DNA from: an uncultured Candidatus Binatia bacterium
GTDB lineage: Bacteria > Desulfobacterota > Binatia > UBA9968 > JAJDTQ01
Assembly (NCBI GenBank): GCA_965204505.1
Contig: CBDBFB010000002.1
Coordinates: forward strand, 2,370,778-2,434,777
Length of the DNA: 64,000 nucleotides
Direction: 5' to 3'
In this document: piece by piece, positions 1 to 32,054 of the stretch
Layout of the letters: every line of letters starts with the position of its first letter
Position numbering within the stretch: the first letter of the stretch is position 1
Program-made: the position numbers and the translations under genes
The notes under the pieces: model-generated
The model's input: only the letters and a program-made list of their open reading frames with translations
Databases searched by the model: none
What the model was told of the DNA's origin: nothing

Positions 1-563
1 TGGTTGTAGAGGAAGGGGCAAAGACCCTCTGGCGGCGGGTTGCCGACCGTCTGGCCGAGTGCGGCCTGGAGATGCGCCCGCAGAAGACCACGGTGGTCTA
101 TTGCAAAGACACCAACCGCAAGGGGGACCACCCGACGGTCGCGTTCGACTTCCTCGGCTATCGTTTCCAGCCAAGGCTTGCGGCGTGGCGCGGAGGGTTG
201 TTCGGGGTCTCGTTCCTTCCGGCTGCCAGCCCGACCGCGCTCAGGGCGTTTCGCCGCCGCGTGCGGCAATGGGGCTTGCGACGGCGTAGCGACAAGGGGC
301 TGCTCGATCTTGCCCGCATGTTTCTTCGCGAAATTGCAGGGTGGATCGGCTACTTCGGTGCGTTCTACAAGTCGGCCCTCTATCCGACGCTTCGCCTGAT
401 AGACGCCCACTTGCATCGATGGGCAACGAGGAAGTTCGAACGCTTCCGACGACGACCGCGTCAGGCTCGTCTCCGGCTAGCCAGAATCGTGAAAGCGGAG
501 CCGTGGCGGTTCGCCCATTGGCCCCTGTTGTACGGGAAGGGCCGGACGCTGGGAGCCGTATGA
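1..563 (+). CDS. Group II intron reverse transcriptase/maturase, C-terminal part; 5' end lies upstream of the window
   Basis: ORF 72-563 translates to ...HPTVAFDFLGYRF...IAGWIGYFGAFYKSALYPTLRLIDAHLHRWATRKF, the post-YADD thumb/maturase region seen in the other intron RTs in this window (e.g. 31500-31902). The ORF stop falls inside a domain-V-like hairpin. Confidence 0.7.
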   Translation, partial: VVEEGAKTLWRRVADRLAECGLEMRPQKTTVVYCKDTNRKGDHPTVAFDFLGYRFQPRLAAWRGGLFGVSFLPAASPTALRAFRRRVRQWGLRRRSDKGLLDLARMFLREIAGWIGYFGAFYKSALYPTLRLIDAHLHRWATRKFERFRRRPRQARLRLARIVKAEPWRFAHWPLLYGKGRTLGAV

Positions 564-620
564 GTCGAGAGGCTCACGTACGGTTCCGGGAGCGCGTTGG
601 GGGTGAGATTCCCCCGCGCG
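548..620 (+). ncRNA. Group II intron domain V/VI and 3' boundary of the intron entering from upstream
   Basis: gagccgtatgag-tcgagagg-ctcacgtacggttc forms the conserved domain V hairpin (AGC triad, GNRA-like loop). A near-identical motif recurs at 5482-5515. Homology to IS66 tnpC begins right after about 620. Confidence 0.45.
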
Positions 621-624
621 ACTC

Positions 625-1268
625 GATGCCCGCTCTACCGCCAGGCGCAGATCTACGCCCGCTCGGGTCTCGATCTTCACCGCTCGACGCTGGCCGGGTG
701 GGTGGGCAAGGCGGCGTTCCACCTCAAGCCGGTGGTGGACCGGCTGGCTTGGCGCCTGAGACAGTCGGGGAAGCTGTTCATGGACGAGACCCGGGCTCCG
801 GTGCTCGATCCCGGACGGGGCAGGACCAAGACCGGGTGGCTGTGGGCGCTGGCCCGGGACGACCGCGGTTGGGGCGGCCCGGACCCGCCCGGGGTGGTGT
901 GCTTCCATGCCGCGGCGGCGAGCACGCGGAGACCTTCCTCAAGGGGTTCAAGGGCATCCTGCAGGTGGACGGCTACGGCGGCTACAACCGGCTTGCCGGC
1001 CCGGACCGGCAGGTGCGGCTGGCGTATCTGGATGCACGCCCGGCGCAAGGTTCACGAGGTCTTCGAGAGCACCGACTCGAAGGTGGCGGCCGAGGGCTTG
1101 CCGCGGATCGTGGAGTTCTACGCCATCGAGGCGGAGATCCGCGCCCCCAGGCCCTCACGAGAAAGAACGCCCTGTTCCCGGGTCATGACGAAGGCGCCAC
1201 TGCCTGGGGCCGCATCGCCTCGCTCATCAAGACCGCCAAGTTGAACGGGGCCGAGCCCTACGCCTATT
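625..1268 (+). pseudogene. tnpC: IS66-family TnpC internal fragment (frameshifted), bounded by group II introns on both sides
   Basis: Translations PLYRQAQIYARSGLDLHRSTLAGWVG...KLFMDETRAPVLDPGRGRTKTGWLWALARDDRGWGGPDPPGVV and ...GGEHAETFLKGFKGILQVDGYGGYNRLAGPD lie in different frames. Both match the intact TnpC copies at 9525-11135 and 21598-23208. The fragment ends at ...EPYAYCAR where the intron sequence GTGAAG... begins. Confidence 0.7.
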
Positions 1269-1965
1269 GCGCCAGGTGAAGCCCTGGAGAGGAGGATGCC
1301 ATGAGCTGAAACCTTTCGAAGCGATCCAGCGGGTTCGACTCCCGTCCGGTAAAGGCGCAGCCCGCCAGCCGGAAGCGAGTCTTGCGCGGCGAGCGGCAAC
1401 GCCCGTCGCGAAGCGTAGACAGCAGGTGACGAAGCGGCGGAAAAAAAGCCTCGAAATGGGTAAACCGATGACGCCTTCATTGTTAAGCGGGTGGGGGCAG
1501 TACCGGAAGCGCCGTGACTGGCGAGGCGCAACGGGTCGTCCGGGGTCGTGGACCGGCGCAGAGTCACGGGACGGATCGCCAGGGAACCTGGGAGGTCCTG
1601 CCCTTGCCCGTGGGCAAAGAAGCTGGAGAGGGATGGCCAGCGTGAAATCCAGACCCCGGTCCGTTGCCGGCGCCTGCGCGGCGGCGGGAGCGCCCTCGGG
1701 CGGACACGAACCCCGGCAGGCAACAGCCCGCGGAGCCGGCTGGCGAAAACAATGAGCCGAAGGACATGCAGGGGCAGGAAGTCGTAGCGCCTTGATAGTA
1801 CCGTGGAAGGCGGGGAACCGTGGCCGTCGGGACCCGCTGGAGGGAAGCGGGGCGCCATCTGAACAGACCCACTGATGGGAAACGCTGGAGGAAACCCTGA
1901 GTTCCACCAACACGTACACGAAACAGCAGTGGATAGCCGAACAGGCGAGGGAGCATCCGGAGCGG

Positions 1966-2562
1966 GTGTTCACGTCCCTGCACCACCTGATCGACGGCGA
2001 GTGGATGCGCGAAGCCTACCGGCGGACGCGAAAGGATGGGGCGACGGGCATCGACGGCGTGACGGCTGCGGACTACGAGAAGGACCTTGAGGCCAACCTT
2101 GACGGCCTGCTGGACCGGATCAAGTCGGGCCGTTACTTTGCGCCGCCGGTGCGCCGGCGCTACATCCCCAAGGCGGACGGCACGAAACGGCCTCTGGGCA
2201 TACCGACGCTGGAAGACAAGGTGGCGCAACGGGCCATCCTGATGCTGCTGGAACCGGTCTACGAGACGGACTTTGTGCCGTGCTCGTACGGCTTCCGGCC
2301 CGGGCGGTCGGCCCACGATGCCCTGAACGCACTGCGAAAGGGCATCATGGAGCAGCGCCAACGGTGGGTGATCGACGCGGATCTGAGATCGTACTTCGAC
2401 TCGATCCCGCACGGCCACCTGAGGACCTTCCTCGACCTGCGGATCAAGGACGGCGTCGTAAGGCGCATGATCGACAAATGGCTGAAGGCAGGGGTGCTCG
2501 AAGAGGGCACCGTGCACAAACCGGTTGCTGGCACTCCCCAGGGCGGGGTGATGACGCCCTGA
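1966..2562 (+). pseudogene. Intron X RT N-terminal half (RT domains 0-4), truncated at ...GTPQGGV by the insertion that starts at 2551
   Basis: HHLIDGEWMREAYRRTRKDGATGIDGVTAADYE...RPLGIPTLEDKVAQRAI...SYGFRPGRSAHDAL...VIDADLRSYFDSIPH...TPQGGV is a typical group II RT. The expected ISPLLSN continuation resumes only at 4789. Confidence 0.75.
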
Positions 2563-2576
2563 ACGCAAAAGGTAAC
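2551..2576. repeat. Left terminal inverted repeat of the serine-recombinase element
   Basis: 26/26 nt reverse-complement match to 4763-4788. Two further imperfect matches extend inward. Confidence 0.85.
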
Positions 2577-2659
2577 TTCCGCTTTGAACGTGAGATTGTG
2601 CAATGGCGGGACCGTCCCTTAGTTGATTTACGCCGCAAAGGGTAATACTCTTATGACAA

Positions 2660-2989
2660 ATGGTTCGGTCGACACGAGCCCAAAAGGTCGAGCGGCTCAA
2701 CGCCGCCTACACACTCCTCGCCCAAGGCGTCTCCGCGAGCGAAGCCGTGTTGCGCCTGTCGCAACGCTTCGGGCTGTCGCAGCGCCAGTCGTATCGTTAC
2801 ATCCAGGACGCCCGCGCCATGAGCCAGCCGTCCGAGCCGGGCGAAGCGCTGACCCCCATCACTATCAAGATTCCGGGCACACTGGCGGCGACGCTGCGGG
2901 CGCATGCCAGGAGCAGCGGCCGCTCCATCGCGGAGATCGTCACCCGGGCTCTGAGGCGCTTCTTCTCGCATGCGGGTGGGCATGGCTGA
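2660..2989 (+). CDS. Small DNA-binding protein (N-terminal HTH-like, C-terminal ribbon-helix-helix-like) carried inside the recombinase element. It could be an accessory protein or a recombination directionality factor (RDF)
   Basis: 109-aa ORF. LLAQGVSASEAVLRLSQRFGLSQRQSYRYIQDA is HTH-like. ITIKIPGTLAATLRAHARSSGRSIAEIVTRALRRFF resembles a CopG/RHH beta-strand plus helices. There is no clear Shine-Dalgarno. Confidence 0.4.
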   Translation: MVRSTRAQKVERLNAAYTLLAQGVSASEAVLRLSQRFGLSQRQSYRYIQDARAMSQPSEPGEALTPITIKIPGTLAATLRAHARSSGRSIAEIVTRALRRFFSHAGGHG

Positions 2990-3135
2990 ACGTCGCGCGG
3001 GCTCCCGGCCCTCCGTTCAACTCGCTTATGCCTTTGATCGTCTGCTCGACGCCAAGCTCCAGAACGTCTACGCGATCCTGGTGCCGGATCAGGCTCACAA
3101 GATCCCGGCCCGGGCGCACGATATAGGAGACGAAC

Positions 3136-4899
3136 ATGAGGATCGCAGCCCTGTACGCGCGGGTCTCGGGCGAGCAGCAGAGAGATAGCCACACGATCGC
3201 CAGCCAGACCGAAGCCCTGGTAGCCTACGCCGAGTGTCACGGGTACCGCGTCGCGCCCGACATGATCATCGAGGACGACGGCTACAGCGGCGCCGTTCTC
3301 GAACGCCCGGGACTCGAGCGGGTCCGGGACCTCGCCGCGGAAGGGCGCATCGACACGGTGGTGGTGCATGCCCCGGACCGCTTGAGCCGGCGCTATGCCT
3401 ATCAGGTTGTGATTATCGAGGAGCTGGCGCGCCAGGGCGTCGAGACCGTGTTTGTGAACGCTCCGTCGATGGAAACCCCCGAGGACCACCTCCTCGTGCA
3501 GTTCCAGGGCATGATCGCGGAATATGAACGCGCCCAGATTCTGGAGCGTTCCCGGCGCGGCAAGCGTCATCGGGCGCGACGCGGCGAAGTCGCCGTCCTC
3601 AGCGGCGCGCCCTATGGCTACCGCTACCACAAGAAGACCCCGGACAGCGATGCGTTCTACGAAATCATCGAACCGCAGGCTTCGGTGGTTCGCGAGGTCT
3701 ACCGCTGCTACACTTGCGACCACATGAGCATCGGCGCGATCACGCGCAATCTCAAGGAGCGCGAGGTCCTTACGGCCACGGGGCGTTCGCGCTGGGAACG
3801 CTCGACCGTGTGGGCGATTCTCCGCAACCCCGCCTACAAGGGGACGGCCTGTTTCGGCAAGACCCGCCAGATGCCTCGAAAAAGCGTGACACGTCCTGTA
3901 CGCCTGAGCGGAGGCTTCGCCAGCGCCACTACCGGCAGTCACGAGAAACCGCGTGAGGAGTGGATCGAGATCCCGGTGCCGGCGATCGTCAGCGAGGAGA
4001 CCTTCGCCCTGGCCGAAGAGCGGCTGGAGAGAAACAAGATCCACGCGCCACGTCGCACCAAGACACTCAGCGTGGTCCAGGGACTGGTCTCCTGCGGCAA
4101 ATGCGGCTACGCGTGGTACCGCACCTCGGCCCAGACGAGCGCCCGCAAGATCTCCTATTACCGCTGCCTGGGATCCGATTCGTGGCGCCACCTCAACGGG
4201 CCGCTGTGCGACAGCCGTCCGGCGCGCCAGGAACTGCTTGATGACGTCGTATGGACCGAGGTGGTCCGCCTGCTGGAGAACCCTGCACTGATCAGCGCGG
4301 AAATCGACCGGCGACTGGAGGCGGCCCGTGCCTCCGACCCCAACCAGCAGCGCGAGGCCGACCTGCGGCGCCGGCTGATCAGGGTCCGCAAGAGTATCGA
4401 CCGCCTGGTCAATGCCTATCAGGAGGAGTTGATAACCATCGACGAACTGCGTGACAGAACGCCCGAACTTCGCCGTCAGGAGCAGGCGCTGCATCGCGAA
4501 CTGCAATCCGCGGTCGATCAGGCCAAGGAGCGCGAGACCTACCTGCGGCTCGCCGAGACCCTGACCGACTTTCTGGAGAGGCTGCGTTCGTCCGCCGAAA
4601 CCCTCGACATCGCGGAACGTCAACGCATCGTACGGCTCCTCGTGAAGGAGGTGTTGGTCAGCGAAGACAAAATCACGATCCGCCATTCAATCCCGATCTC
4701 GGGCTCGCCAGGAGGCGGTCCAGACCCCTCGAAATCCGCCACGGACAGCCCCGAAGGCGAAGGTTACCTTTTGCGTTCAGGGCGTCATCTCGCCGATGCT
4801 TTCCAACATCTTCCTGCACCATGTGCTGGACGAGTGGTTCGAGAAAGTGGCGAAGCCACGCTTGTACGGAAAGTGCCAGTTGGTGCGTTTCGCCGATGA
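3136..4899 (+). CDS. Large serine recombinase (resolvase/invertase N-terminal catalytic domain plus large C-terminal recombinase/zinc-ribbon/coiled-coil region)
   Basis: [24 protein letters not shown]...[14 protein letters not shown]...[12 protein letters not shown]...[27 protein letters not shown]...GAPYGYRY... then a Cys-containing zinc-ribbon (CGKCGYAWY...YYRC) and long coiled-coil. The ORF reads through the right IR into flanking RT sequence before stopping at 4899. Confidence 0.85.
4763..4788. repeat. Right terminal inverted repeat of the serine-recombinase element
   Basis: 26/26 nt reverse-complement match to 2551-2576. Confidence 0.85.
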
Positions 4900-4901
4900 C
4901 T
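4789..4901 (+). pseudogene. Intron X RT fragment (domain 5-7 up to the FADD/YADD motif)
   Basis: [38 protein letters not shown], then interrupted by GTGCGCC... (intron Y). Confidence 0.6.
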
Positions 4902-5555
4902 GTGCGCCACGACGGCGACGAGAGGAGGTTCTGATGACGTAGCAGAGCCGAGTTGAAGCGCCTTGCTGCACAGGAGATGAGGGAAGGCCCCTCGGACTCG
5001 GGTTGCAGGACCAGGGTCCAAACCACCGCAAGCTGCTCCGGTTCAACGACCGGGGTGGTGAGCGTTGCGGAAAAGGCGGGAATCACCCGTCAGGTGTGCG
5101 CTGGTAAGACGAACGAAAGTGAACCGTTGATGACGTGTCGAAAGCGTAAAGATGTCGCCGAAACCAGGCTCCAGTCGTTGGTCTGGGATGGAGCTCGGAG
5201 GGTGCCTGCTGACTGGCCGAGCGGCGACCGGCATGAAGGCGGCGTGAGACCAGCGAGAGGCTCTTGTGCGGAACGTGGGAACCTGGAGCTCCGATGCCAA
5301 GGGAGACCTCCAAGCGGAAGAACCGCAAGGAGCCGAGTACCGAAGCGGAGCACAGGGACGGACGGGTCCGTATTAGCGATGAAGCCCGGCAATGCGGGCG
5401 GAGCGAAGGGACCCGACCCTCTGGCCAAGGATGGAGGCCAACCAGAGATGGGAGGAGCCGGTGTCTGAGGCTGGAGGGTAGGAGCCGGATGAGGCGAGAG
5501 TCTCACGTCCGGTTCTGGGAGGGCCGAGGGGTGAAATTCCCCTCGGCTACTCGAC
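4902..5555 (+). mobile_element. ORF-less group II intron Y (654 bp) nested in the RT ORF of intron X directly after FADD
   Basis: Begins GTGCGCC (the same 5' end as intron copies at 35879 and 39668). It contains domain V gagccggatgag-gcgagag-tctcacgtccggttc (5482-5515) and ends ...ggctactcgAC. Excision joins gatgac-t|ttgtcatcgccctcgaa, which encodes FADDFVIALE. Confidence 0.5.
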
Positions 5556-6115
5556 TTGTCATCGCCCTCGAAGACCGCCACAGCGGCAAGCGTCTGCTTG
5601 ACGTGCTGGGCAAGCGTCTCGGTCGATACGGGCTCACGCTCCATGAGACCAAGACGCGCCATGTGGACTTCCGCCGGAGACGCCCATACGGGCGTCACTG
5701 GATGGCGTCGGCCACGACGTTCGATTTCCTCGGCTTCACCCACGTGTGGGGGCGGTCGAGGCAAGGCAAGGACGTCGTTCGCCAGATTACGGCGAAGGGC
5801 CGCTTCGCCCGTGCGCTGAAAGCGGTGCACCAGTGGTGCAAGAGATGCCGGCACCTGCCGGTAAAGGCGCAGCAAGACTATCTTGCACGGGTGATCCGGG
5901 GCCACTGCGCATACTACGGTCTGACGGGGAACGGCAAACGTCTGGAGCGGTTCCGCCAACAGGTCGCCCGCATCTGGCGAACGTGGCTCGCACGCCGCAG
6001 CCGCCTCAGGTGCTTGAACTGGGACCGGATGAACGAACTTCTCAAGCGATATCCCTTGCCGCGAGTCACCTTCATGCGCTCATGGCAACGCTTCCTGAGC
6101 GAACCTGTCAGATGA
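5556..6115 (+). pseudogene. Intron X RT C-terminal part (post-YADD palm/thumb and maturase X domain)
   Basis: LVIALEDRHSGKRLLDVLGKRLGRYGLTLHETKTRHVDF...FDFLGFTHVWGRSRQGK...GHCAYYGLTGNGKRLERF... parallels 57440-58051 and 31380-31902. Confidence 0.65.
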
Positions 6116-6189
6116 GGAACCGAGTGCGTCAATCGCGCACGCTCGGATCTGTGGGGGGAGGGGCTCGGTAACGACCCCTCCTACCCGGC

Positions 6190-6249
6190 CCTCAAGGCGA
6201 CCCTCGAGGCCATCGCCTCGGGCCATCCCGCCTCGCGCATCGACGAACT
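6190..6249 (+). pseudogene. tnpC: IS66 tnpC 3'-terminal fragment
   Basis: LKATLEAIASGHPASRIDEL matches the intact TnpC C-terminus (23110-23180). Homology stops at 6249/6250 where the inverted ORF-less intron begins. Confidence 0.5.
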
Positions 6250-7077
6250 GTCGGGTAGGGCACTGGCGCGCGCACCTTTATTGGGCCACGTTTCCAGCCG
6301 CCCTCCCTAAAATTCCGTACGTCGGGTTTTCCCCGGTACGGCTTCAAGCTTCAGGCACCTCGCAGTTCGGCACGGAGCCTTCCGCAGGGTCGCCGAGGTC
6401 AAGGCCGATCCCGCCATACCCCCGAACGGACGCTGCGTTTGCTCCGCCCTTCGACGATGCCACTCGCCGGTTGATGCGTCGCCTCTGTGTGCGAAACCGC
6501 CGGTTGCAACATCGCCACCTGAGCCCAGAGGCCCTCGCTCCGGCCGGGTTATGTTGTCCCGGCCATCACCGCTTGTCGGCCTCATCCGCCAGTCTGGACG
6601 TCTCCGCCTCATTTCCCGGCACGACCGGTTATAGACGCGGTCTTTGACATTCGAGGATCATCCTGTCTGACCTCCAGACCTTCCGGACTTTCGCTGCGGT
6701 ACTTTCGAGTATTGCCGCCTTCAATACGCCGGGAGCCCCGGTGCGTGCGCCTCAGTTTCTTCCGCACCGGCACTGGCCATCGGGTAGGCAAGAAAACCCT
6801 TGGCAGCTCCAATTTATCCCGCAAATCAGCTTCACGCGGGAACGCCCTTTTCGACGCTTGATCCGTTCACTCTCGTTGCGGCCCTGCTCGTTGCTCGCCT
6901 TCCGGGCTGATCGCACAGGAGCGGCACAAAGGCCTCCCTGTCCCCCGAGGCTTTTACGTCCGGGCTTCCAGATCGCCGGGTCGCCCCGTGCGTCTGCCGG
7001 ATATGACTACGGCGCCAAACTGAGAACTGCGCCGGCGGGACTCTCACCCGCTAGTACCGCAGCTAGTCTCGCTGCGC
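6250..7077 (-). mobile_element. ORF-less group II intron (about 830 bp), a second copy of the element at 56380-57283, inserted near the 3' end of the IS66 remnant
   Basis: The reverse complement aligns over its length with 56380-57283. Shared segments include agtcccgccggcgcaRttctcagtttggcgYcgtagtcatatcc and a domain V gaagccgtaccggggaaaacccgacgtacggaat. Its 3' end ...ccctacccgAC abuts IS66 sequence. IS66 homology resumes at 7078 (cctcccctgggcgttcacacccgc). Confidence 0.5.
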
Positions 7078-7120
7078 CCTCCCCTGGGCGTTCACACCCG
7101 CTTTCCCGCTGATCCCGGGG

Positions 7121-7148
7121 CGCCCGCGGGCGCCCGCGGGCGCCCGCC
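7121..7148. repeat. 10-bp tandem repeat (CGCCCGCGGG), about 2.7 units. The homologous site upstream of paralogue 2 (about 14057-14075) has about 1.7 units
   Basis: Direct reading: cgcccgcggg cgcccgcggg cgcccgccac at copy 1 versus gcgcccgcgggcgcccgccact at copy 2. Confidence 0.6.
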
Positions 7149-7368
7149 ACTCGCCTCATCGCCGTGCCGCCTTCTTTGTCAAGGTGGTTTTTTCGCACCG
7201 TTTACCCCTTTTTTCGCTTCGGGCACGAAAGTAACACTTAAATAGATAATTGGGGCACACTGATGGCACACAAAATATGGATGGATATGGTATGGGGATT
7301 TTGACTTTGGGATTGTCACAAACGCGCGGGACTGCGCTCCGGCGCGCCCGCCGGCGGCGGACAAAGAC

Positions 7369-7383
7369 GGGAGGTTCGAAATG
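7369..7383 (+). promoter_or_regulatory. Strong Shine-Dalgarno (GGGAGG) plus ATG of a leader ORF that runs through the octamer repeat
   Basis: gacgGGAGGttcgaaATG has 6-nt spacing. The ORF MPLTFTALSHNRPAAQRPSG(PAAQRPSG)n continues through 7415-7486. The annotated adhesin ATG at 7496 has no recognisable SD. Confidence 0.5.
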
Positions 7384-7414
7384 CCCTTGACATTTACGGC
7401 ACTGTCTCATAATC

Positions 7415-7486
7415 GCCCAGCGGCCCAGCGGCCCAGCGGCCCAGCGGCCCAGCGGCCCAGCGGCCCAGCGGCCCAGCGGCCCAGCG
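7415..7486. repeat. Octanucleotide microsatellite (GCCCAGCG)x9
   Basis: Counted directly: nine perfect 8-bp units, followed by ggcagcgacATG. Confidence 0.95.
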
Positions 7487-7495
7487 GGCAGCGAC

Positions 7496-9494
7496 ATGAG
7501 GTGCGCCCGGCGGGAGGCCGGCCCGCCTGACCCGGCCGCCGCCCCTCGAGGGCGCGCACACAAGCTCCTCTCCCCTTCATCCGGACTGACCGGCGGCCGC
7601 CTGGCCGCTCCGGCGGGCTCGCGCCGGGCCGCGTCTCCGTGGCGCCGCCCCGCCCTCCTTCCCGTCCTCGCGCTGGTGCTCGGCGCGCTCGGCCTGTTCG
7701 CGGCTGCGCCCGCCGCGGCGCAGTCCACCATCTGGTCCGCGACGCTGACAGTAGATCAGGACGGCGTGTTATTCGGCTGCGACACCTTCATAGCTGGCCA
7801 CGACAGCTGCACCGTGGGGCTCACGGACGAGGACTTCGTGTACAAGGGTGTGACCTATCGAGTCAATCGGCTATTTGTGAGCTCTACCACTGGGCGGCTG
7901 ACGCTTGAGGTCGACCCGGATGCAGGGTCGAATCTTGCTGGGATGACGTTGCATCTCGGCACTGCGCAGCTAACCGTTGGTGATGATGTCAGAGTATCAT
8001 TCGGCAGAGCTTTAAGCTGGGCCAATTCCGGCGTGACCTGGACCGACAACCAGCAAGTCGCGGTGAGGCTGGTGGCGCCCCCGCCCTCGCTGGGCCGCGC
8101 CGGCAGCATGTCCGTCGACGGGTTCCACCCGATGGGACCCGGACGCATGAAGATCGCCGAGGGCACATCGATCACCTACGGCATCGTGATCCACCAGCCG
8201 CCGACCGCGGATCTGACCATCACGCCGCGACACCACAACGTCCGACCGGACGGCAGCGACTACCCCAACGTCGACAACAGCCTGCTCACGATCCACAACG
8301 CGGTCACCTGGAAAGCCGCCCCGCACCCCAACTACCTGAGCGGGGACTGGCAGCAGGCCAAATCGGTCGGGCTCACCGCGGTGGACGACAACGAGTGCAA
8401 GTCTCCGCCCGGCACCCGGTACTGGATCAGGCACCACGGCAGCGGCGGCGGTCCCGACTGGGGCGGGTGGGACCGGCAGGACCGGCACCATGGCCTGGTG
8501 ATCTCGATCGAAATCATCGACGACGACTGCAAATATCTGGCCGCTTCCCCGGGCCAGGTGTCGCCGGAGGAGGGCGGCAGCGCGACCTACACCGTCCGCC
8601 TGAAGACGCCGCTCGAGGACGCCGCGTACATTTCCCCGCGCATCAGCGTCCCCGGCGACAGCGACCCCGGCGCGGTCACGGTCTCTCCCGAGCGGATCCG
8701 GGTCGAAGCGGGAGACACGAGCCCGAAGACGTTCACGGTCAGCGCCGGAAGGGACGCGAACTCCCGTAACGAGGTCCTGGTTGTCGACCACAGCGTCGAC
8801 TCGCCGGAGGTCCCGGCGGATTACCTGGGCGGCCGGGTGACCGTCATTGTCCAGGACGAACAGAACGCGGCGAGGACGCACGAGCGCGACGCGCTGAGCG
8901 TGACCGGTCTTGCGCTCACGGCCGGTTCGGAGGCGGTGGCGCTGGTTCCGGCCTTCTCGCCGGGGGTGAAGTCCTACCGGGCGGAGGTCCCGGCGGGGAC
9001 GGCGGGCGTGACGCTGGCGCCGCACTGGAGCGGCGGGGCGAGCGTGCACGCGGGCTCGCGCCGGGGCGGGACGACCTTCACGCGCCCGGCGCGGGTGCGG
9101 CCCTCGGGCACGGCGGTCGCGCTGGCGCTGGCGCCGGACGGCGGCGCGACCGAGCTGTGGGTGATGGCGAGCGGCGGTTCGAGCGGCATGACGACCTACC
9201 GCATCGAGGTGACCGAGGCGCAGGCGCAGGCGCCCGAGGAACAGACCCCGCCGGAAGAAGAGGCCCAGACCGTGGCGGTGGCGTTCGGCAAGGTCCCGCC
9301 GGAGCATGACGGGCGGACGGCGTTCGCGCTGGACGTGCAGTCGGGCTCGAAGCCCGCTGCCGACGCGTTCAAGGTGACGGCCGGGAAGGTGACGGGCGTG
9401 GAGCCGCTGGACCCGGTGCTGTGGCGGGTGCGCGTCAAGCCGGAGTCCTGGAAGGACGTGAAGGTTGCGCTCGGCGCGGCGTCGGCGAAGGTCC
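7496..9494 (+). pseudogene. Autotransporter-like adhesin paralogue 1, N-terminal part (signal peptide plus passenger), interrupted by IS66
   Basis: ...RRPALLPVLALVLGALGLFAAAPAAAQS is a signal-peptide-like stretch. The passenger region follows. The ORF ends where IS66 right end gtaagcgttgccgc begins. The C-terminal half continues at 12118 in frame with paralogue 2. Confidence 0.7.
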
Positions 9495-9524
9495 GTAAGC
9501 GTTGCCGCTGGGGCACGTTGACTT

Positions 9525-11135
9525 TCAGCGAGAGTCGGGGGTGAAGGCCCAGGGGAGGAGCTCGTCGATGCGTGAGGCGCGATGCCCCGAGGCGATGGCT
9601 TTGAGGGTAGCCTTGAGGTAGGCGTACGGCTCGACGCCGTTCAGCTTGGCGGTCTCGACCAGCGAGGCGATGCGGCCCCAGGCGGCGGCGCCTTCGTCGT
9701 GGCCGGCGAACAGGGCGTTCTTGCGGTTCAGGGCCAGCGGGCGGATGAGGTTCTCGACGCAGTTGGTGTCCATCTCGACGCGCCCGTCTTCGAGGAACAC
9801 CAGCAGGCCGTCCCAGTGCCGGGCGATGTAGGCCAGCGCCTCGCCCAGGCGGGACTTGGCCGAGAGCCGCGCGCGTTGTTCCGTAAGCCACGCGCCGAAC
9901 TCCTCGACCAGGGGCGCGGTCCGGCTCCGGCGTTCGGCAAGGCGGTGTTCGGCCGAGGCGCCGCGGATCCCGTCCTCGATGGCGTAGAACTCCGCGATCC
10001 GCCGCAGCCCCTCGGCCGCGATCCCGGAGCGGTCGCTGTCGAAGACATCGTGGACCTTCCGCCTGGAATGCCCCCAACAGTACGCCAGGCGCACCTGCCA
10101 GTCCGGGCCCGCAAGCCGGTTGTAGCCGGCATAGCCGTCCACCTGCAGGATGCCCTTGAACCCCTTGAGGAAGGTCTCCGCGTGCTCGCCGCCGCGCCCC
10201 GGGGCGTAGAAGTACACCACCCCGGGCGGGTCCGGGCCGCCCCAGCTTCGGTCGTCGCGGGCCAGCGCCCACAGCCACCCCGTCTTGGTCCTGCCCCGGC
10301 CGGGGTCGAGGACCGGAGCCCGGGTCTCGTCCATGAACAGCTTCCCCGACCCCTTCAGGTGCGAGGCCAGCCGGTCCACCACCGGCTTGAGGTGGAACGC
10401 CGCCGCGCCCACCCACCCGGCCAGCGTCGAGCGGTGCAGATCGACCCCCGAGCGGGCGTAGATCCGGGACTGGCGGTAGAGCGGAGAGTGGTCGGCGTAC
10501 TTCGACACCAGCACGTGGGCGATGGCCCCTTCGGTCGGCAGCGCGCCCTCGATCAGGTGCGCCGGCGCCTCGGCCTGGGTGACCCCTTCCTGGCACACCC
10601 GGCAAGCGTACTTGGGCCGCACCGTGACGATCACCTGGAGTTGCGCCGGCACGATGTCCAGCCGCTCGGTGCGGTCCTCGCCTATGCGGGTCATCTCGCC
10701 GCAGCCGCATGGACACTGCGTGCTCTCGGGCTCGATCACCTCCTCTGACCGGGGCAGATGAGCGGGCAGATGGCCGATGTTGCGCTCGGGAGCCGAACGC
10801 TTCCGGCGAGGCGTCCCCCTGGCCGGCGCCGGCGCGGATTCCTTCGCCTCGGCCACGGCCGCTTCGAGGTCCTCGAACGCCAGTTGCAACTGGTCGGGAT
10901 GGAGCTTCTCGGACTTCTTGCCGTACACCGCCCGGTTGAGCTCCCGCACCAGGTGCTCGAGGCGGCGGTTCACGTCTTCAAGATGATGGTTCAGGTCTTC
11001 GAGATGGTGGTTGCGGTCGGAGAGGGAAGCGTTCTCGGTGCGAAGCGCCTCCATGGCCGCCTGCTGTCCCTCGAACAGCGCCCGCAAGGACGGCGCGAGG
11101 GATGAGAGACCGGCCTTGCCGAGGTTGACCTCCAT
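9525..11135 (-). CDS. tnpC: IS66-family transposase TnpC
   Basis: 536-aa ORF with Zn-finger-like CPCGCGEM..C..C, ...HSPLYRQSRIYARSGVDLHRSTLAGWVG..., DDE-region GWLWALARDD...LQVDGYAGYN... Confidence 0.85.
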   Translation of the reverse strand: MEVNLGKAGLSSLAPSLRALFEGQQAAMEALRTENASLSDRNHHLEDLNHHLEDVNRRLEHLVRELNRAVYGKKSEKLHPDQLQLAFEDLEAAVAEAKESAPAPARGTPRRKRSAPERNIGHLPAHLPRSEEVIEPESTQCPCGCGEMTRIGEDRTERLDIVPAQLQVIVTVRPKYACRVCQEGVTQAEAPAHLIEGALPTEGAIAHVLVSKYADHSPLYRQSRIYARSGVDLHRSTLAGWVGAAAFHLKPVVDRLASHLKGSGKLFMDETRAPVLDPGRGRTKTGWLWALARDDRSWGGPDPPGVVYFYAPGRGGEHAETFLKGFKGILQVDGYAGYNRLAGPDWQVRLAYCWGHSRRKVHDVFDSDRSGIAAEGLRRIAEFYAIEDGIRGASAEHRLAERRSRTAPLVEEFGAWLTEQRARLSAKSRLGEALAYIARHWDGLLVFLEDGRVEMDTNCVENLIRPLALNRKNALFAGHDEGAAAWGRIASLVETAKLNGVEPYAYLKATLKAIASGHRASRIDELLPWAFTPDSR

Positions 11136-11187
11136 GACAAGAATAGTATCACAAAATCAGGCACTTAGCAACAAAAAACGCCTCCGC

Positions 11188-11544
11188 TCACCCCGCCGCC
11201 GTACGCGGCCGCCGCACCCGCGGCGCCCACGCCCGACGCCAGTCCAGCCCTTCGAACAACGCCTCGAACTGCGCCCCCGTAAGCCGCATCACCCCGTCCC
11301 GCACCCCGGGCCACGCAAACCGCCCCTGCTCCAGACGCTTCGACGCCAACACCAGCCCCGTCCCGTCCCACCACAGCACCTTCACCCGGTCCAGCCGCCG
11401 CGGCCGGAACACCACCGCCACCCCGCTGTACGGGTCCAGTCCCAGCTCCTGCTCCACCACCGCCGCCAACCCGTCATGGCCCTTGCGGAAGTCCACAGGC
11501 CTCGTCGCCACCACCACCCGCGTCCCCGACCCCGGAGCTGTCAT
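11188..11544 (-). CDS. tnpB: IS66 accessory protein TnpB (Orf2)
   Basis: 118 aa. VDFRKGHDGLAAVVEQELGLDPYSGVAVVFRPRRLDRVKVLWWDGTGLVLASKRLEQGRFAWP is the conserved IS66 Orf2. ATGA overlap with tnpA. Confidence 0.8.
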   Translation of the reverse strand: MTAPGSGTRVVVATRPVDFRKGHDGLAAVVEQELGLDPYSGVAVVFRPRRLDRVKVLWWDGTGLVLASKRLEQGRFAWPGVRDGVMRLTGAQFEALFEGLDWRRAWAPRVRRPRTAAG

Positions 11545-12032
11545 CGCAGACCCCGCAGCGCCGAGGCTATCTCGGCGATCCGCACCGCGCCGATGGCTCC
11601 CTCAAGCCGTACCGTCACTCCCCGCGCCTCGATCGACACCGAACCCACCGCCGTTGTCTCCTCCACCACCTCCAACTCGGCGAAGGCAGGAACGCTCCCG
11701 GGCGCCGCCACCCCAGCCTTGCCCCCTGCCTGGCTCCGCTCCGCCCCAGCCTCAGCCAGGCTTCCCGCCGCCCCCGAACCCGGCGGCGTCAGCCTGCCCC
11801 GCTGTGCCAGCTTTCGCCATGCGCTCACCTGACTGACCGACAACCCGTGGCGTTGCGCCACTTCCCCCACCTTCACTCCAGGCCAGCAACACTCCCGGAC
11901 CACCTGCGCCTTCTCCTCGTCCGTCCATCTCCGATCCCCAGCCGTCGCCGGCGGCCGGACAACCTCCGTATCCCCGCCCGCCGCCGCCTCCCGGTCCAGC
12001 TCCTCCTCGACACCCCGTTCGACATCATCCAT
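11541..12032 (-). CDS. tnpA: IS66 TnpA (Orf1, HTH protein)
   Basis: MDDVERGVEEELDREAAAGG...RWTDEEKAQVVRECCWPGVKVGEVAQRHGLSVSQVSAWRKLAQRG. The start follows the GGAAGGAGGG SD. The upstream TTG start in the ORF track is not needed. Confidence 0.75.
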   Translation of the reverse strand: MDDVERGVEEELDREAAAGGDTEVVRPPATAGDRRWTDEEKAQVVRECCWPGVKVGEVAQRHGLSVSQVSAWRKLAQRGRLTPPGSGAAGSLAEAGAERSQAGGKAGVAAPGSVPAFAELEVVEETTAVGSVSIEARGVTVRLEGAIGAVRIAEIASALRGLR

Positions 12033-12117
12033 TGCCTTGCCCTCCTTCCTCTGGTTGGAGGGCAAGCCTACCCCCTCATACTCGGGGTTAGGAAGATGGG
12101 GTGTTCGTTACGCTTAC

Positions 12118-13888
12118 GAAGGTCCGGGGTCCGGCGCGCATCCGGGTCGCGGACGCGCGGGCGAAGGAAGGCAAGGACGCCTCGCTGGACTTCGCGGTGA
12201 CGCTGAGCCGCGCGGCGTCGGGGCCGGTGTCGGTGGACTATGCAACCGAGAACGGCACGGCCACGGCGGGCGAGGACTACACGGCCGCGTCGGGCACGCT
12301 CGTCTTCGCGGCGGGCGAGACGGAGAAGACGGTCTCGGTGCCGCTGCTCGACGACGCGCATGACGAGGGCAAGGAGACGTTCACGCTGAAGCTCTCGAAC
12401 CCGCAGGGGGCGTATCTGCGCGCGATGCACCGCGAGGCGAAGGGGGTCATCAGGAACGAGGACACGCTGCAGCGGGACTGGCTGGCGCGCTTCGGTCGCG
12501 CGGCCGCGGCGGACGCGGTGGCGGCGGTGACGGCGCGGCTGGAGACGCCGCGGAGCGCGGGCTCGCACCTGACGGTGGGCGGCCAGCGCCTGTCGCTCGG
12601 GGGCCGGGCGCTGGCGGAGGCGCTGACGGGGTTCGCGCGCCGCTACGGCGCTCAGGCCCCGGCGGACGGCCTGCATGAGCGGCGCGGGCGGCCGGTGACG
12701 GGGCGCGAGCTCTTGATGGGCACTTCGTTCCGCGCGGTGCTTGGCGGCGGGGGCTCCCGGTTCACGGGCTGGGGGTCGGGGGCGTCGGTGTCGCGGTTCA
12801 CGAGCGCGGCGCCGGGGCTTTCGCTGAGCGGCGAGGCGGCCACCGGGGCGGCGGGCATGGACTACGAGCGGGGCCGGCTGCTGACCGGGCTGGCGATGAC
12901 CCACAGCCTGGGCAAGGGCGCGGCGCAGGGCTCGGGCCGGAGCTACGCGATGGGGAGTTCGGTCACGACGGTGCTTCCCTACGCGCGCTTCGAGTTCTCG
13001 GAGCGGGTGTCGGCCTGGAGCTTGGCGGGGACGGGGTCGGGACGGCTGACGCTGGACCTGGACGGCGACGCGGCTGCGCGCCACGGCGCGGACCTGTCGA
13101 TGACGCTTGCGGCGGCCGGGGTGCGGGGCGAGGTGGTGACGCCCGCCGGGGCGGGCGGGTTCTCGCTGGCGCTCAAGGCGGACGCGTACTGGGTGCGCAC
13201 GGAGTCGGAGCGGGTGTCCGTGCCCGGGGTGGGGAACCTGGCGGCGGCGCGCGCGGACGCGAGCCGGCTCCGGGCGGTGCTGGACGGGTCGCGGGCGTTC
13301 ACGCTCGGTGGCGGCGGGACGCTGACGCCATCGGTGGAGCTCGGGGTGCGTCACGACGGGGGCGAGGGGGGCAGCGGCACGGGCATGGAGGTCGGCGCCG
13401 GAGTGGGATGGGCGGACCCGTCGCGGGGCCTTGACGTGGCGGTCCGGGTGCGCGGGCTTGCGGCCCATGCCGGGGAGGGCTACCGGGAATGGGGCGTGTC
13501 GGGGTGGCTGAGGGTCGTGCCGGGGGCGGCGGGACGGGGCCTGTCGATGTCGCTCACGCCGTCCTGGGGCGCGGCCCCGGGGGGCTCGGAGCGGCTGTGG
13601 AGGATGCCGGAGGCTTCGAGGCTGGCTGCAAACGACAATGCGGCTCCATCCGGGCGGCTGGACGCGGAGGTGGGCTACGGCATGGCGGTGTTGGGCGGGC
13701 GCTTCACCGGGACGCCGAACCTCGGGTTCGGGGTGTCGGACACGGCGCGGGAGTACCGCATGGGCTGGCGGCTCGCCTCGGTGGCGTCAGGCTTCGAGCT
13801 CAGTCTCGACGCCACGCGCCGGGAGACGGCCGACGGTGGCGGGCCGCCCGAGCACGGGGTGATGCTGGGCGGAACCGTTCGCTGGTAG
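12118..13888 (+). pseudogene. Autotransporter-like adhesin paralogue 1, C-terminal part (Calx-beta domain plus beta-barrel translocator)
   Basis: VDYATENGTATAGEDYTAASGTLVFAAGETEKTVSVPLLDDAHDEGKETFTLKLSNPQGA is a Calx-beta domain. The Gly/Ala-rich C-terminal 450 aa end ...GVMLGGTVRW (terminal aromatic), which is consistent with an autotransporter barrel. Near-identical to 16975-18735. Confidence 0.7.
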
Positions 13889-14295
13889 GAGCGCAGCGGC
13901 TCCGCCCGGCCCCGTCGCGGACCGCGCGCACGGCGCGCCGCATCAGCCGGCGGCGCTGTTCCGTGGAATGTCTTGCGGGGGCGGCGACACCCGTCAATGC
14001 GCCTGTAAACAAAGGGCCTGTAAACAAAGGAATTGAGCCATGTCCCGCTGATCCCGGGGCGCCCGCGGGCGCCCGCCACTCGCCTCATCGCCGTGCCGCC
14101 TTCTTTGTCAAGGTGGTTTTTCGCACCGTTTACCCCTTTTTTCGCTTCGGGCACGAAAGTAACACTTAAATAGATAATTGGGGCACACTGATGGCACACA
14201 AAATATGGATGGATATGGTATGGGGATTTTGACTTTGGGATTGTCACAAACGCGCGGGACTGCGCTCCGGCGCGCCCGCCGGCGGCGGACAAAGA

Positions 14296-14311
14296 CGGGA
14301 GGTTCGAAATG
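14296..14311 (+). promoter_or_regulatory. SD GGGAGG plus leader ATG (copy 2)
   Basis: Identical to 7369-7383. Leader ORF 14309-14515 (68 aa) reads (PAAQRPSG)n and stops 4 nt into the adhesin ATG region, out of frame. Confidence 0.5.
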
Positions 14312-14342
14312 CCCTTGACATTTACGGCACTGTCTCATAATC

Positions 14343-14502
14343 GCCCAGCGGCCCAGCGGCCCAGCGGCCCAGCGGCCCAGCGGCCCAGCGGCCCAGCGGC
14401 CCAGCGGCCCAGCGGCCCAGCGGCCCAGCGGCCCAGCGGCCCAGCGGCCCAGCGGCCCAGCGGCCCAGCGGCCCAGCGGCCCAGCGGCCCAGCGGCCCAG
14501 CG
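14343..14502. repeat. Octanucleotide microsatellite (GCCCAGCG)x20
   Basis: Counted directly: twenty perfect units, then ggcagcgacATG (14512). Confidence 0.95.
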
Positions 14503-14511
14503 GGCAGCGAC

Positions 14512-17500
14512 ATGAGGTGCGCCCGGCGGGAGGCCGGCCCGCCTGACCCGGCCGCCGCCCCTCGAGGGCGCGCACACAAGCTCCTCTCCCCTTCATCCGG
14601 ACTGACCGGCGGCCGCCTGGCCGCTCCGGCGGTCTCGCGCCGGGCCTTGTCCCCGTGGCGCCGCCCCGCCCGCCTCCCCGTCCTCGCGCTGCTGCTCGGC
14701 GCGCTCGGCCTGTTCGCGGCCGCGCCCGCCCAGGCGCAGTCCCAGATCTGGTCGGCGACGCTGACAGTCGGTGATATCGATGACGACGGGGCGTATCTCG
14801 GCTGCGATAACTCTGGCTGCCCCTCGGCGCTCACGGACGATGAACTCGAGCACAACGGTGAGAAATATACCGTCGAAAACCTTTATTACAACAATGGTAG
14901 GGTATCGTTGAAGTTGGGCGGGATACAACCGAGCGCGACGTCACCGGCCCCGACCCCAGGGTCGAAGTTTGACGGGATGGTGTTGCATCTCGGCACTGTG
15001 CGGCTACCCGTTGGTGGAGTTGTTAGATTTAGCGATACCGGTTGGCACAACTGGTATGTCGACCCGCAATGGACCGACGGCCAGCGGGTCGCGGTGAAGC
15101 TGGAGATTCCGGCGAAGTCGCCGTGGTTGTGGCCGGACGGGACCCGGCATCACGACAAGAACCAGATCTGGTCCACCACGATGGCGGCGAAGGCCCTCGA
15201 GCCGACGCGATGGGGCACGGACTCGTCCGGCTGCAGGACCGGTGTGTCGGGGGGCACTTGCCCCCTCGCGATGGGCGCCAACAGGTTCACTTACGCGGGC
15301 AATACCTACACCATCAGCGATTTCTATCACCGCAACGGCACTCTGTTCGCGGGCTTGAGCTCGGGCAGCGCCGCCGCGATCACCGCTGCAAGGTCGCTGA
15401 TGCTGATCGTCAAGTATCCCGCTGGCGCCGAAAGGCGGTTCCCCCTGAGGAATCTGACCGCCAGCGGTTCTTCGGCCACCGCCTCCTGGCCCGTCGACGA
15501 CATGCGCTGGGGCTCCTACGGTCATCCACACCCCACCGACCCACAACGAAATCCCGCCGTGTGGGCGGCCAACTTCGCGGTGACTCTGGCCGTGGTCGAG
15601 GTGCCGGAGCCTGTGACCGTGACCGTGACGAGTCCGGCGCCGCGCACCCACACGGTGACCGTGTCGGTGCCCACGGCGGTCGCCGCGGAGACCATCATAT
15701 CCCTGGGCACGTACGGCAGGGTCGGCCACCGTGTGTGGACGGACGTGAGGGATCCCGACCTGGTAAGCCATTGCGATCCGATGGATGCGTGGGACCCGGT
15801 CTTCCTGAATTCCGATCGCAAGTATCCGTTCGCCTACATCCAGGCGGGGCAGCGGAGCACCACGTTCAACCTTTGCCTTCTCGGAGTCCCGAAGGACGTG
15901 GAGAACCAGGTGCTGTCAAACCAGGTCACCGTGTACCTGCCGCGGGGGAGGTCGTCGGTGATTTACGACATCAACGTCGGCAGCGCCTACGGCGGCGGGT
16001 CCGGGACCGCGGAATTCGAGGGCGGCGAGGGGCCGGGCTCCGGCGGGGAGGAGGAACGCGACCCGCTGACGGCGGTCTTCGAGGAGGTGCCGGAAGAGCA
16101 TGACGGCACGGAGTTCGCGTTCCTGGTGCGTCTGAGCGAGACGGTGGGGAGTTTCAGCCGGTCGCCGCGCTTGTGGTCGTTCGCGGTGACGCAGGGCCGG
16201 GTGACGGGCGTGGAGCAGATCGGCGCCGGGCTGTGGCGGGTCACGGTGCGGCCGGCGTCGCCGAGCGACGTGACGGTGACGCTTGCGGGCGGGCGGGACT
16301 GCGACGACGAGCCGTCGGGCGCGGTGTGCACGCCGGACGGGCGGGCGCTGTCGAACACGTCGAGTGCGAGGGTCGCGGCGGGTCCGCAGCAGCAGCAGGA
16401 GGTGTTGGTCACGCCGGAGCCGGCCGACGTGCGGGTGGTGCCGGGCGACGGCAGCCTGACGGTGAGCTGGACGGCGGTGGCGCACCCGCGCGTCGCTGCG
16501 GAGCGGGTGCAGCACGCGCTGCGCTGGAGCCAGGAGGCGGGCGTGTGGGCCAACCCGTCGGGCAACAACGGCATCGCGGTGGAGGCCGGCGTGAACGGCT
16601 ACACCATCACCGGGCTGAGGAACGGCGTGGCGACCGGGGTGTTCGTGCGCGCCTTCGTGGGCCGGCTCCGGTCGGAGCGCAGCGAGCACTCGAGCGGGTG
16701 GGTCCGTGTGAAGGGCGAGTCGACGACGCCGCGGGCGGCAACCCAGACCGTGGCGGTAGAGTTCGGCAAGGTCCCGGCGGAGCATGACGGGCAGACGGCG
16801 TTCGCGCTGGACGTGCAGTCGGGCTCGAAGCCCGCCCCGGAGGCGTTCAAGGTGACGGCCGGGAAGGTGACGGGCGTGGAGTCGCTGGACCCGGTGCTGT
16901 GGCGGGTGCGCGTCAAGCCGGAGTCCTGGAAGGACGTGAAGATAGCGCTCGGCGCGGCGTCGGCGAAGGTCCGGGGTCCGGCGCGCATCCGGGTCGCGGC
17001 CGCGCGGGCGAAGGAGGGCAAGGACGCCTCGCTGGACTTCGCGGTGACGCTGAGCCGCGCGGCGTCGGGGCCGGTGTCTGTGGACTATGCAACCGAGAAC
17101 GGCACGGCCACGGCGGGCGAGGACTACACGGCCGCGTCGGGCACGCTCGTCTTCGCGGCGGGCGAGACGGAGAAGACGGTCTCGGTGCCGCTGCTCGACG
17201 ACGCGCATGACGAGGGCAAGGAGACGTTCACGCTGAAGCTCTCGAACCCGCAGGGGGCGTATCTGCGCGCGATGCACCGCGAGGCGAAGGGGGTCATCAG
17301 GAACGAGGACCCGCTGCAGCGGGACTGGCTGGCGCGCTTCGGTCGCGCGGCCGCGGCGGACGCGGTGGCGGCGGTGACGGCGCGGCTGGAGACGCCGCGG
17401 AGCGCGGGCTCGCACCTGACGGTGGGCGGCCAGCGCCTGTCGCTCGGGGGCCGGGCGCTGGCGGAGGCGCTGACGGGGTTCGCGCGCCGCTACGGCGCTC

Positions 17501-30072: not shown

Positions 30073-32054
<1,982 letters not shown>

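Follow-up and report, generated by a model that had tools for sequence, protein, structure and literature searches.

A serine-recombinase element in the reverse transcriptase gene of a group II intron, within a nest of mobile elements of a Candidatus Binatia bacterium

We analyzed a 64-kb stretch of contig CBDBFB010000002.1 from an uncultured Candidatus Binatia bacterium (the window; all positions below are those of its forward strand). The first 7.1 kb of the window is mobile DNA throughout. The nest at 1-7110 comprises the remnant of an IS66-family insertion sequence, four group II introns (named A, X, Y and Z), and an element that encodes a ribbon-helix-helix (RHH) protein and a large serine recombinase (LSR). 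A preliminary description of this DNA had listed the same elements; all of them are present, 0-18 bp from the positions it gave, and their architecture and order were correct. The recombinase element, whose specificity had been missed there, is a site-specific invader of the reverse transcriptase (RT) genes of group II introns, and it is the main subject of our analysis.

The nest is built on tnpC of the IS66 family, three pieces of which remain. Piece 1 (628-1266) corresponds to approximately 22247-23114 of an intact copy in the window and has a DDE_Tnp_IS66 domain (E = 1e-33), piece 2 (6190-6249) corresponds to 23115-23174 (92% by blastn), and piece 3 (7078-7107) to 23175 through about 23210. 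After in-silico removal of the inserts the three pieces are collinear with the 3' third of the intact tnpC (21598-23208). For this comparison, 600-1266, 6190-6249 and 7070-7130 were rejoined and globally aligned to 22200-23290. Stepwise removal and realignment had been set beforehand as the test of the nest, and the rejoined sequence proved collinear up to 23210. The rejoin alignment revealed deletions of 7 bp and 218 bp within the remnant tnpC as compared to the intact copy. In a self-BLAST, 630-1143 matched 22249-22771 (89%) and 1142-1266 matched 22990-23114; the same remnant pieces also match a second intact IS66, with values of 84-92% across both copies. The intact copies are located at 20615-23239 (+) and 9494-12118 (-) and contain tnpA, tnpB and tnpC, the latter encoding 536 aa in the + copy. 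Thus both the DDE_Tnp_IS66 domain and the collinearity with the tnpA-tnpB-tnpC copies place the remnant in the IS66 family. It ends about 30 bp before the right terminal inverted repeat (IR), which reads ...CCGCTTAC at 23239 in the intact copy, and it lacks the IS66 set of terminal IRs (GTAAGCG...) and 8-bp target duplication; its left end lies outside the window. Because the right terminal IR is missing, this piece is a remnant and not a functional member of the family.

The three introns that interrupt tnpC differ in class and site, and Z also in orientation. Intron A is represented by its 3' part (1-627, + strand), its domains I-IV being outside the window. It encodes a GIIM domain (72-563, E = 4e-13) in an open reading frame (ORF) that ends at 563, and its domains V and VI (DV/DVI) match Rfam family RF00029 at 551-627 with 55 bits, the gathering score of this family being 40 bits. 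The intron terminates in ...GAU, and the IS66 homology resumes at 628-630, within the Ser codon of ...YADHS|PLYRQ.... According to blastn, its 3' end belongs to the same class as intron Y and the intron of locus L038.

Intron X (1267-6189, + strand and sense to tnpC) occupies exactly the gap between IS66 positions 23114 and 23115, in the ...EPYAY|LKATLE... codons of tnpC, and its length without its two inserts is 2,033 nt. Its domains I-IV (D1-D4) belong to class 6 (RF02005, 126 bits at 1336-1555), and its DV/DVI (6115-6189) stops exactly where the IS66 homology restarts, with an RF00029 score of 35 bits (E = 4e-4) that is below the gathering score. The preliminary description had placed X at about 1257-6207 and the end of A at about 620; both introns are real, while their ends are refined here to 1267-6189 and 627. 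The termini of X are UUGCG...GC rather than the 5' GUGYG and 3' AY of the consensus. This 5' boundary is real and UUGCG a trait of the class, because the relatives at loci L012 and L084 begin with the same bases next to unrelated exons. In these three introns a loop of domain I at homologous positions, the exon-binding site 1 (EBS1), pairs with the last bases of the 5' exon at 6/6 positions in L012, 5/5 in L084 and 5/6 in X, which fits an insertion of X guided by pairing between EBS1 and the intron-binding site 1 (IBS1). The RT gene of X is distributed over three pieces (1966-2550, 4787-4901 and 5556-6115). Without the recombinase element and intron Y they form an uninterrupted ORF for a 419-aa RT (RVT_1 1-204/205, E = 2e-38). 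The ATG at 1875 is shifted by one base relative to this ORF, and the RT gene of X is for this reason probably already damaged.

Intron Y (4902-5555, + strand, 654 nt) is inserted between the FADD and FVIAL codons of X's RT and forms a twintron with X, whose ORF becomes continuous on removal of Y. It is ORF-less, has the consensus termini GUGCG...CGAC, and is assigned to D1-D4 class 2 (RF01999, 113 bits at 4979-5095) with a DV/DVI match above the gathering score (RF00029, 60 bits at 5480-5555). The Y ribozyme is 71-74% identical to ORF-containing introns in loci L022, L026, L032, L038 and L076. Intron Z (6250-7077) is also ORF-less and lies on the opposite strand, antisense to tnpC, at ...RIDEL|LPWAF.... 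Its assignment to D1-D4 class 4 is borderline (RF02003, 48.8 bits at 7053-6871 versus a gathering score of 49), and a search of Rfam at E <= 1 gave no DV/DVI match. Z is 75% identical to an intron at 56379-57262 (+) and 81% identical to the intron of locus L003, with both termini common to all; a DV-like hairpin is shared with these two relatives and includes one compensatory change. The 5' end of Z departs from the consensus, being GCGCAG versus GUGCAG in the relatives. With C for U at the second base and no DV in Rfam, Z is probably inactive and defective in splicing. Thus two of the four introns encode an RT or maturase domain (RVT_1 in X and GIIM in A), and the ORF-less introns Y and Z both have ORF-bearing relatives of the same class. 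Precise insertion was established for X and Z by comparison with the intact IS66 and for Y by continuity of the ORF. The positions given earlier for Y, for the inverted ORF-less intron Z and for the IS66 end at 7078-7107 needed no change.

A second nest is present in the same window at 55270-58051. In its intron W (D1-D4 class 6 at 55314-55535), the Z-like ORF-less intron at 56379-57262 divides the RT at ...AGVM|EAGEW... into the parts 55633-56394 and 57263-58051. Locus L003 (Ca. Binatia JAJDXX010000097.1, 1715-2601) has a W-type intron that was entered by a Z-like ORF-less intron shortly before the start of the RT. The RT motif 4 of this W-type intron holds a recombinase element as well, so that a second genome shows a parallel case of double invasion.

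Taken together, the nesting order in the first 7.1 kb is IS66, then X within it, then the recombinase element and Y side by side within X. The nest is three mobile elements deep; the four levels claimed for it earlier are reached only when the host DNA is counted. Likewise, of the at least four introns said to invade IS66, four are indeed present and three of them (A, X and Z) touch IS66, while Y sits in X. The E-values throughout, and the exactness of the rejoining, are far beyond what chance would give.

The recombinase element occupies 2553-4786 (2,234 bp, + strand) in the RT gene of X, where it splits the codons of GTPQGGV|I|SPMLSN. An AT dinucleotide flanks each end, so that the earlier delimitation of 2551-4788 is true for the span including both. 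The element is bounded by perfect 24-bp terminal IRs, the left one (GACGCCCTGAACGCAAAAGGTAAC, 2553-2576) being the complement of the right one (4763-4786). Between these ends we find a detached 3' end of the recombinase gene (2553-2645, 30 codons and a TAA stop), the CopG-like RHH gene (2660-2989, 109 aa; Pfam RHH_1, E = 2e-4), and the LSR ORF (3136-4899). The latter has the Pfam domains Resolvase (PF00239, E = 3.5e-35), Recombinase (PF07508, E = 6e-20) and Zn_ribbon_recom (PF13408, E = 1e-8), with YARVS at residues 7-11. When the element ends are joined around a single AT, they form a perfect palindrome, as expected of a serine-recombinase attachment site; the joint would read ...GCGTTCAGGGCGTC-AT-GACGCCCTGAACGC.... 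We also considered GT as the crossover core of this copy and rejected it, as AT gives the perfect palindrome and matches the empty site in Bradyrhizobium. The RHH gene was found in 81 of 84 loci (it is annotated as CopG family in pUSDA76), and its product is a candidate regulator or directionality factor.

The element of the window is 96.5% identical to copies in a Ca. Binatia metagenome-assembled genome (MAG), and the same architecture was observed in more than 80 loci. A database search returned hundreds of LSR relatives with 60-98% identity, and tblastn confirmed 541 loci in a genome scan. The detailed taxonomy is based on the best 80 of these 541 loci. This set covers Ca. Binatia (97-98%), Spirochaetia, Alpha- and Gammaproteobacteria, Acidobacteriota, Gemmatimonadota and Verrucomicrobiota, that is, at least six phyla, and its cultured carriers include Nitrococcus mobilis Nb-231, Sinorhizobium psoraleae and Bradyrhizobium. 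In NCBIfam and PDB we found only distant matches to the LSR (CcrB, XisF, SPbeta YokA, TP901-1 and TnpX), all below the family cut-offs. A more remote relative with 47% LSR identity and similar terminal repeats (CACGCCCCCAACGCAATGGG) is located on a plasmid of Streptomyces sp. NBC_00842 (locus L092, NZ_CP108851.1, 1904-4157). Its ORF reads through in the same manner, but the gene interrupted by this relative encodes a Tn3-family (DUF4158) transposase instead of an RT, which hints at a possible wider habit of targeting the genes of mobile elements.

The insertion sites of the family, determined by locating the IRs of each locus and reading its flanks, are uniform at the level of the encoded protein. 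The element interrupts one and the same codon of RT motif 4, GTPQGGV|I/V|SPLLAN, in 45 of 45 unique sites for which both flanks could be read; their hosts include Binatia, Proteobacteria and Acidobacteria, among others. The common pattern consists of G-[T/V]-P-Q-G-x-x, the first two bases of an Ile, Val or Leu codon, and S-P-x-L-[S/A]-N; the corresponding DNA is exemplified by a stretch of about 50 bp, GGAACGCCCCAAGGCGGCGTGATCTCGCCACTGCTTGCAAACATC. The conservation of the target has codon periodicity, which indicates that the conserved thing is the protein motif. With respect to the RT gene, the element is co-oriented in 27 sites and opposite in 18. Rejoining of the flanks restored a contiguous RVT_1 domain, with GIIM also present in four of six cases, and in introns of four classes the Rfam matches place the element in the interval that separates D1-D4 from DV. 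Within single genomes, copies that are 100% identical were found in different RT genes, which points to recent activity.

Two pairs of occupied and empty sites show the result of insertion directly. The locus of Bradyrhizobium elkanii plasmid pUSDA76 and its counterpart on B. japonicum p1S06B have flanks that are 99.9% identical, and the 2,234 bp of the element plus a second AT are the sole difference between them. The pUSDA76 locus is moreover the same three-level nest (recombinase element within an intron within IS66) as in the window. The second pair is formed by the occupied L003 and the empty site of intron W at window position 57320, with GT at either side of the element. The exchange thus takes place at a 2-bp core that constitutes the first two bases of the Ile or Val codon, usually AT or GT, and the target is otherwise unchanged. 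The flanking dinucleotides are equal in 26 of the 45 sites (AT/AT in 13, GT/GT in 9 and others in 4).

Further RT motif-4 sites were located in the window at 31258, 37068, 40857 and 57320, and none of these four holds a recombinase element. They belong to the introns 30071-32054, 35875-37865, 39664-41654 and W, respectively; the second and the third of them show 100% identity across 1,991 bp. Elsewhere, a number of copies have chimeric flanks (L015-L019 in the Pseudomonadales MAG OY762456.1, L002/L006, L045, L051, L065, L082 and L037). These loci combine the upstream half of one RT with the downstream half of another, carry the same kind of half (upstream or downstream) at both ends, or have a gene other than an RT on one side. 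Such flanks suggest inversions or deletions between copies.

The recombinase gene has a peculiar organization, in that it is split across the ends of the element. In the window 550 codons lie inside the element, and the ORF crosses the right IR into the RT gene of X to reach a chance stop at 4899. The same lack of an internal stop was seen in 69 of 71 copies. Homologues of the LSR in databases range from 556 to 829 aa and have unrelated tails, because the ORF runs past the right repeat into whatever follows. When the ends are joined, the LSR frame continues into the left end. All 57 unique left ends leave it open up to a stop at codon 30-32; the other five frames of the left end contain stops in 15-56 of the 57. 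Coding on the reverse strand or in an alternative frame of the left end was rejected on these stop-codon counts. The resulting tail is conserved as ...NAKGNF-x-F-[E/D]-R-x-I-x-x-W-R-x5-D-L-R-x-K-x-stop, with its Arg, Phe and Asp invariant while the third codon positions vary, and the mean entropy past the repeat is 0.99, 0.75 and 1.33 bits at codon positions 1, 2 and 3, respectively. Judged from these alignments, a complete LSR gene would exist only across the junction of a circle or of a head-to-tail tandem, because its last ~30 codons are at the left end of the element.

A scan of metagenomes with a degenerate pattern of right IR, two free bases and left IR (right-IR-NN-left-IR) yielded seven contigs. 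Two of them are natural head-to-tail tandems (L088 and L090), in which the upstream LSR is completed by the left end of the next copy, and L085 gave a 23-nt read-through. The contigs L086, L087 and L091, from different samples, contain a solo right-end fragment of about 40 bp that abuts the left end of a full element. In L089 (590-629) two elements are arranged head to head with only the 2-bp core between them.

These observations lead us to the following scenario for the nest and its recombinase element. An IS66-family copy, since decayed and truncated, took up three group II introns in tnpC, A and X in sense and Z in antisense orientation. The introns would have arrived via retrohoming or ectopic retrotransposition guided by base pairing between intron and exon, which is partially supported for X by the EBS1-IBS1 pairing. 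The RT gene of intron X then received two insertions, Y (at the FADD codons) and the 2.2-kb recombinase element. The LSR would recognize an attB in the RT gene whose sequence is held constant by selection on the RT protein, so that RT motif 4 would serve as a multicopy, horizontally travelling and non-essential landing site. The element would excise as a circle, its joined ends being a palindromic attP, and the tail would separate the enzyme of the excised form from that of the integrated form and thus act as a state-dependent switch. As a whole, the data are very probably best explained by successive precise insertions that built the nest, together with a recombinase family that is site-specific for RT motif 4.

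Several observations weigh against this explanation. The 5' junction of intron A is outside the window, so that only its 3' junction can be checked; the DV of X scores below the Rfam gathering score and that of Z goes undetected. In a few copies (L004, L021, L028 and L047) at least one of the two flanks is not RT sequence. The seven contigs of the junction scan include no unambiguous free circle, and the conserved tail occurs in 0 of the 120 closest database proteins. Finally, the flanking cores are unequal in 19 of the 45 sites, mostly AT versus GT, a difference in the first base. Canonical serine integrases do not tolerate unequal cores. Here, an attP core would recombine with an attB core that has one different base, and replication would resolve the mismatch either way, which would be unusual for a serine integrase; later mutation is an alternative account of the same sites.

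Three other explanations concern the nest as such, the spread of the element and its split gene. As the region consists of repeats throughout, the nest might be an artefact created by misjoined repeats in the metagenome assembly, which we consider extremely improbable. Mis-joins are expected within shared repeats, whereas the junctions of the nest fall on intron termini and on a 2-bp core and are, each of them, biologically exact insertion points. Removal of the inserts, moreover, gives back both the collinearity of IS66 and an open 419-aa RT, and the order of IS66, intron and recombinase element recurs in the complete plasmid of a cultured strain. It is hardly more credible that the element has no target preference at all and that one intron lineage carrying it was spread by retrohoming. 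In principle an element-bearing intron could be copied by another RT in trans, but the family occupies 45 different target sequences in introns of four Rfam D1-D4 classes and is inserted in both orientations. In addition, copies in unrelated RT genes of one genome are 100% identical, and the members of each occupied/empty pair differ by the element alone. The left-end segment 2577-2645, in turn, could be a regulatory site in DNA or RNA or a binding site of the recombinase, with an LSR that is functionally complete without it and ends at the right IR. Transposons often have accessory sites next to their termini, and a promoter or operator would be expected at this position, directly ahead of the RHH gene. 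The absence of the tail from the 120 closest database proteins would also be accounted for. We nevertheless regard this as improbable, given that the frame is open in 57/57 left ends with a fixed stop, and that the length changes by whole codons only (30, 31 or 32). Replacements in the segment are conservative (E/D, I/V, L/V/I/M), the Arg, Phe and Asp are invariant next to freely varying third positions, and the LSR is without its own stop in 69/71 copies.

The remaining alternative concerns the scaffold. The preliminary description had proposed tnpC of IS66 as a preferred homing target of the introns, and if tnpC were a natural preferred homing site, the presence of three introns within 990 bp of it would be expected. 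For the class of X this idea is partially supported. X-like introns with 62-72% RT identity are found in IS66-family tnpC on plasmids of Bradyrhizobium and Rhizobium, and in the window the EBS1 loop of X pairs at 5/6 positions with the 5' exon. In the rhizobial plasmids, though, the site is at residue 353/354 and antisense, as against 505/506 and sense in the window, and two further X-like introns adjoin ISL3 or IS21. The introns A, X and Z represent three classes at three different tnpC sites (residues 217, 505/506 and 525/526, respectively), with Z in antisense orientation, and both intact IS66 copies of the window are uninvaded at all three of these sites. The relatives of Z are located in the RT regions of W-type introns and not in IS66, and IS66 flanks were observed in only 1 of the 84 recombinase-bearing loci. 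A dead element may simply be tolerant of insertions, and such tolerance explains the pile-up equally well. We therefore consider a preference of the introns for IS66 tnpC weakly supported and, as the reason for the three insertions, rather doubtful. As for the recombinase-bearing loci, IS66 was rejected as their general context, tnpC flanks being present at L084 only.

The nest as such adds one more case to phenomena already known and is in this respect ordinary. Nested introns and introns within other mobile DNA are well documented (Zimmerly & Semper 2015, PMC4424553). Precedents for twintrons are Methanosarcina acetivorans, with up to five nested introns homing into introns, and the ORF-less introns of Thermosynechococcus (Zimmerly & Semper 2015; Mohr et al. 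2010, PMC2882425). The pairs of Y in X and of the Z-like intron at 56379 in W resemble these cases in that the inner introns are ORF-less with related ORF-bearing introns in the genome, and in that the flanks are other mobile DNA and not housekeeping genes. In contrast to the known twintrons, the host here is a Ca. Binatia bacterium, the nest combines an IS66 scaffold with a DNA-recombinase element, and Y splits the catalytic FADD codons. Another relevant system is RmInt1 in ISRm2011-2, a group II intron with its homing site in the transposase gene of an insertion sequence. Introns A, X and Z are likewise inserted in such a gene, and X-class relatives are present in rhizobial IS66 tnpC. Unlike in the RmInt1 type, three unrelated classes occupy three sites of one dead copy, one of them antisense and degenerate.

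With regard to the recombinase element, the closest functional parallels are Tn4451/Tn4453 (TnpX) and Tn5397 (TndX), transposons moved by an LSR with a DUF4368 domain, with a GA core and cargo genes. Joining of the ends into a circle alters the expression of the recombinase in Tn4451, as it assembles a promoter. The element shares with these transposons an LSR as transposase, a 2-bp crossover dinucleotide at both ends, and an expected circular intermediate. It differs in its size of 2.2 kb without cargo, with RHH and LSR as its only genes, in the lack of DUF4368, in its AT/GT core instead of GA, and in its long perfect terminal IRs. Its target, furthermore, is a site in another mobile element that encodes a protein motif, and its junction completes a coding sequence and not a promoter. 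Only in the catalytic domain does the LSR resemble TnpX (E = 8e-7). By sequence, the element appears to work like Tn4451/Tn5397 without being a member of that group, because it has no DUF4368, GA core or cargo and only distant similarity. A TndX-like clade is mentioned by Durrant et al. (2022, PMC10083194). In the IS607 family the serine recombinase is small and binds DNA through a helix-turn-helix domain at its N terminus, terminal IRs are lacking and target specificity is minimal (PMC4058570, PMC6188088). Like IS607, the element is small and similar to an insertion sequence, is mobilized by a serine recombinase and has no conventional target-site duplication, but it has the full LSR domain set, 24-bp perfect IRs and a strict target. 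Membership in IS607 was rejected on the NCBIfam score (38.7 versus a cut-off of 110) and on the presence of IRs.

A full-text literature search, of incomplete coverage such that an earlier description is possible, found no published recombinase element that targets group II RT genes and no LSR gene that spans the ends of its element. Among the serine-recombinase transposons, the element probably represents a new variant. We hold an evenly balanced opinion on the broader proposal that it represents an undescribed family of hyperparasites on group II introns. Such a family would target RT motif 4 in either orientation in at least six phyla and use its split LSR as a switch between excision and integration, with a wider family perhaps specialized in conserved genes of mobile elements. 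In this reading, RT motif 4 is a target that an RT under selection for its protein function could not abandon. The element is a DNA transposon directed at a retroelement motif that is constrained at the protein level, one parasite living on another, and it inactivates intron RTs wherever it is inserted. Completion of the LSR across the end-joint suggests a simple control of directionality that is undescribed in serine recombinases. A natural LSR with a short, defined and degenerate-tolerant attB and a palindromic attP may be of interest for the engineering of integrases, and cultured hosts exist in Nitrococcus mobilis Nb-231 and Bradyrhizobium elkanii USDA 76. The element also explains many split annotations of "reverse transcriptase domain-containing protein" and "recombinase family protein" in rhizobial plasmids and MAGs. 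The nest, for its part, is a record of selfish elements piling up in one another's dead copies, and its lesson is mainly one for annotation.

The sequence that follows the nest is also rich in repeats. Right after the truncated IS66 end there is a perfect 28-bp palindrome of GGGCGCCCGC repeats (7118-7145). A duplicated chromosomal segment starts at 7104, with 97% identity between 7104-7487 and 14043-14415. It belongs to a tandem duplication of about 4.7 kb (7104-13889 versus 14043-18736, 82-98% in the aligned pieces) that encodes paralogous secreted proteins. The first copy of this duplication holds the intact IS66 at 9494-12118, with a target overlap of about 8-10 bp (16964-16973). A partial left end of IS66 (19470-20347, within 19198-20674) adjoins a tandem repeat unit of about 109 bp (19198-19529 and 20339-20674) and is positioned directly upstream of the other intact IS66.

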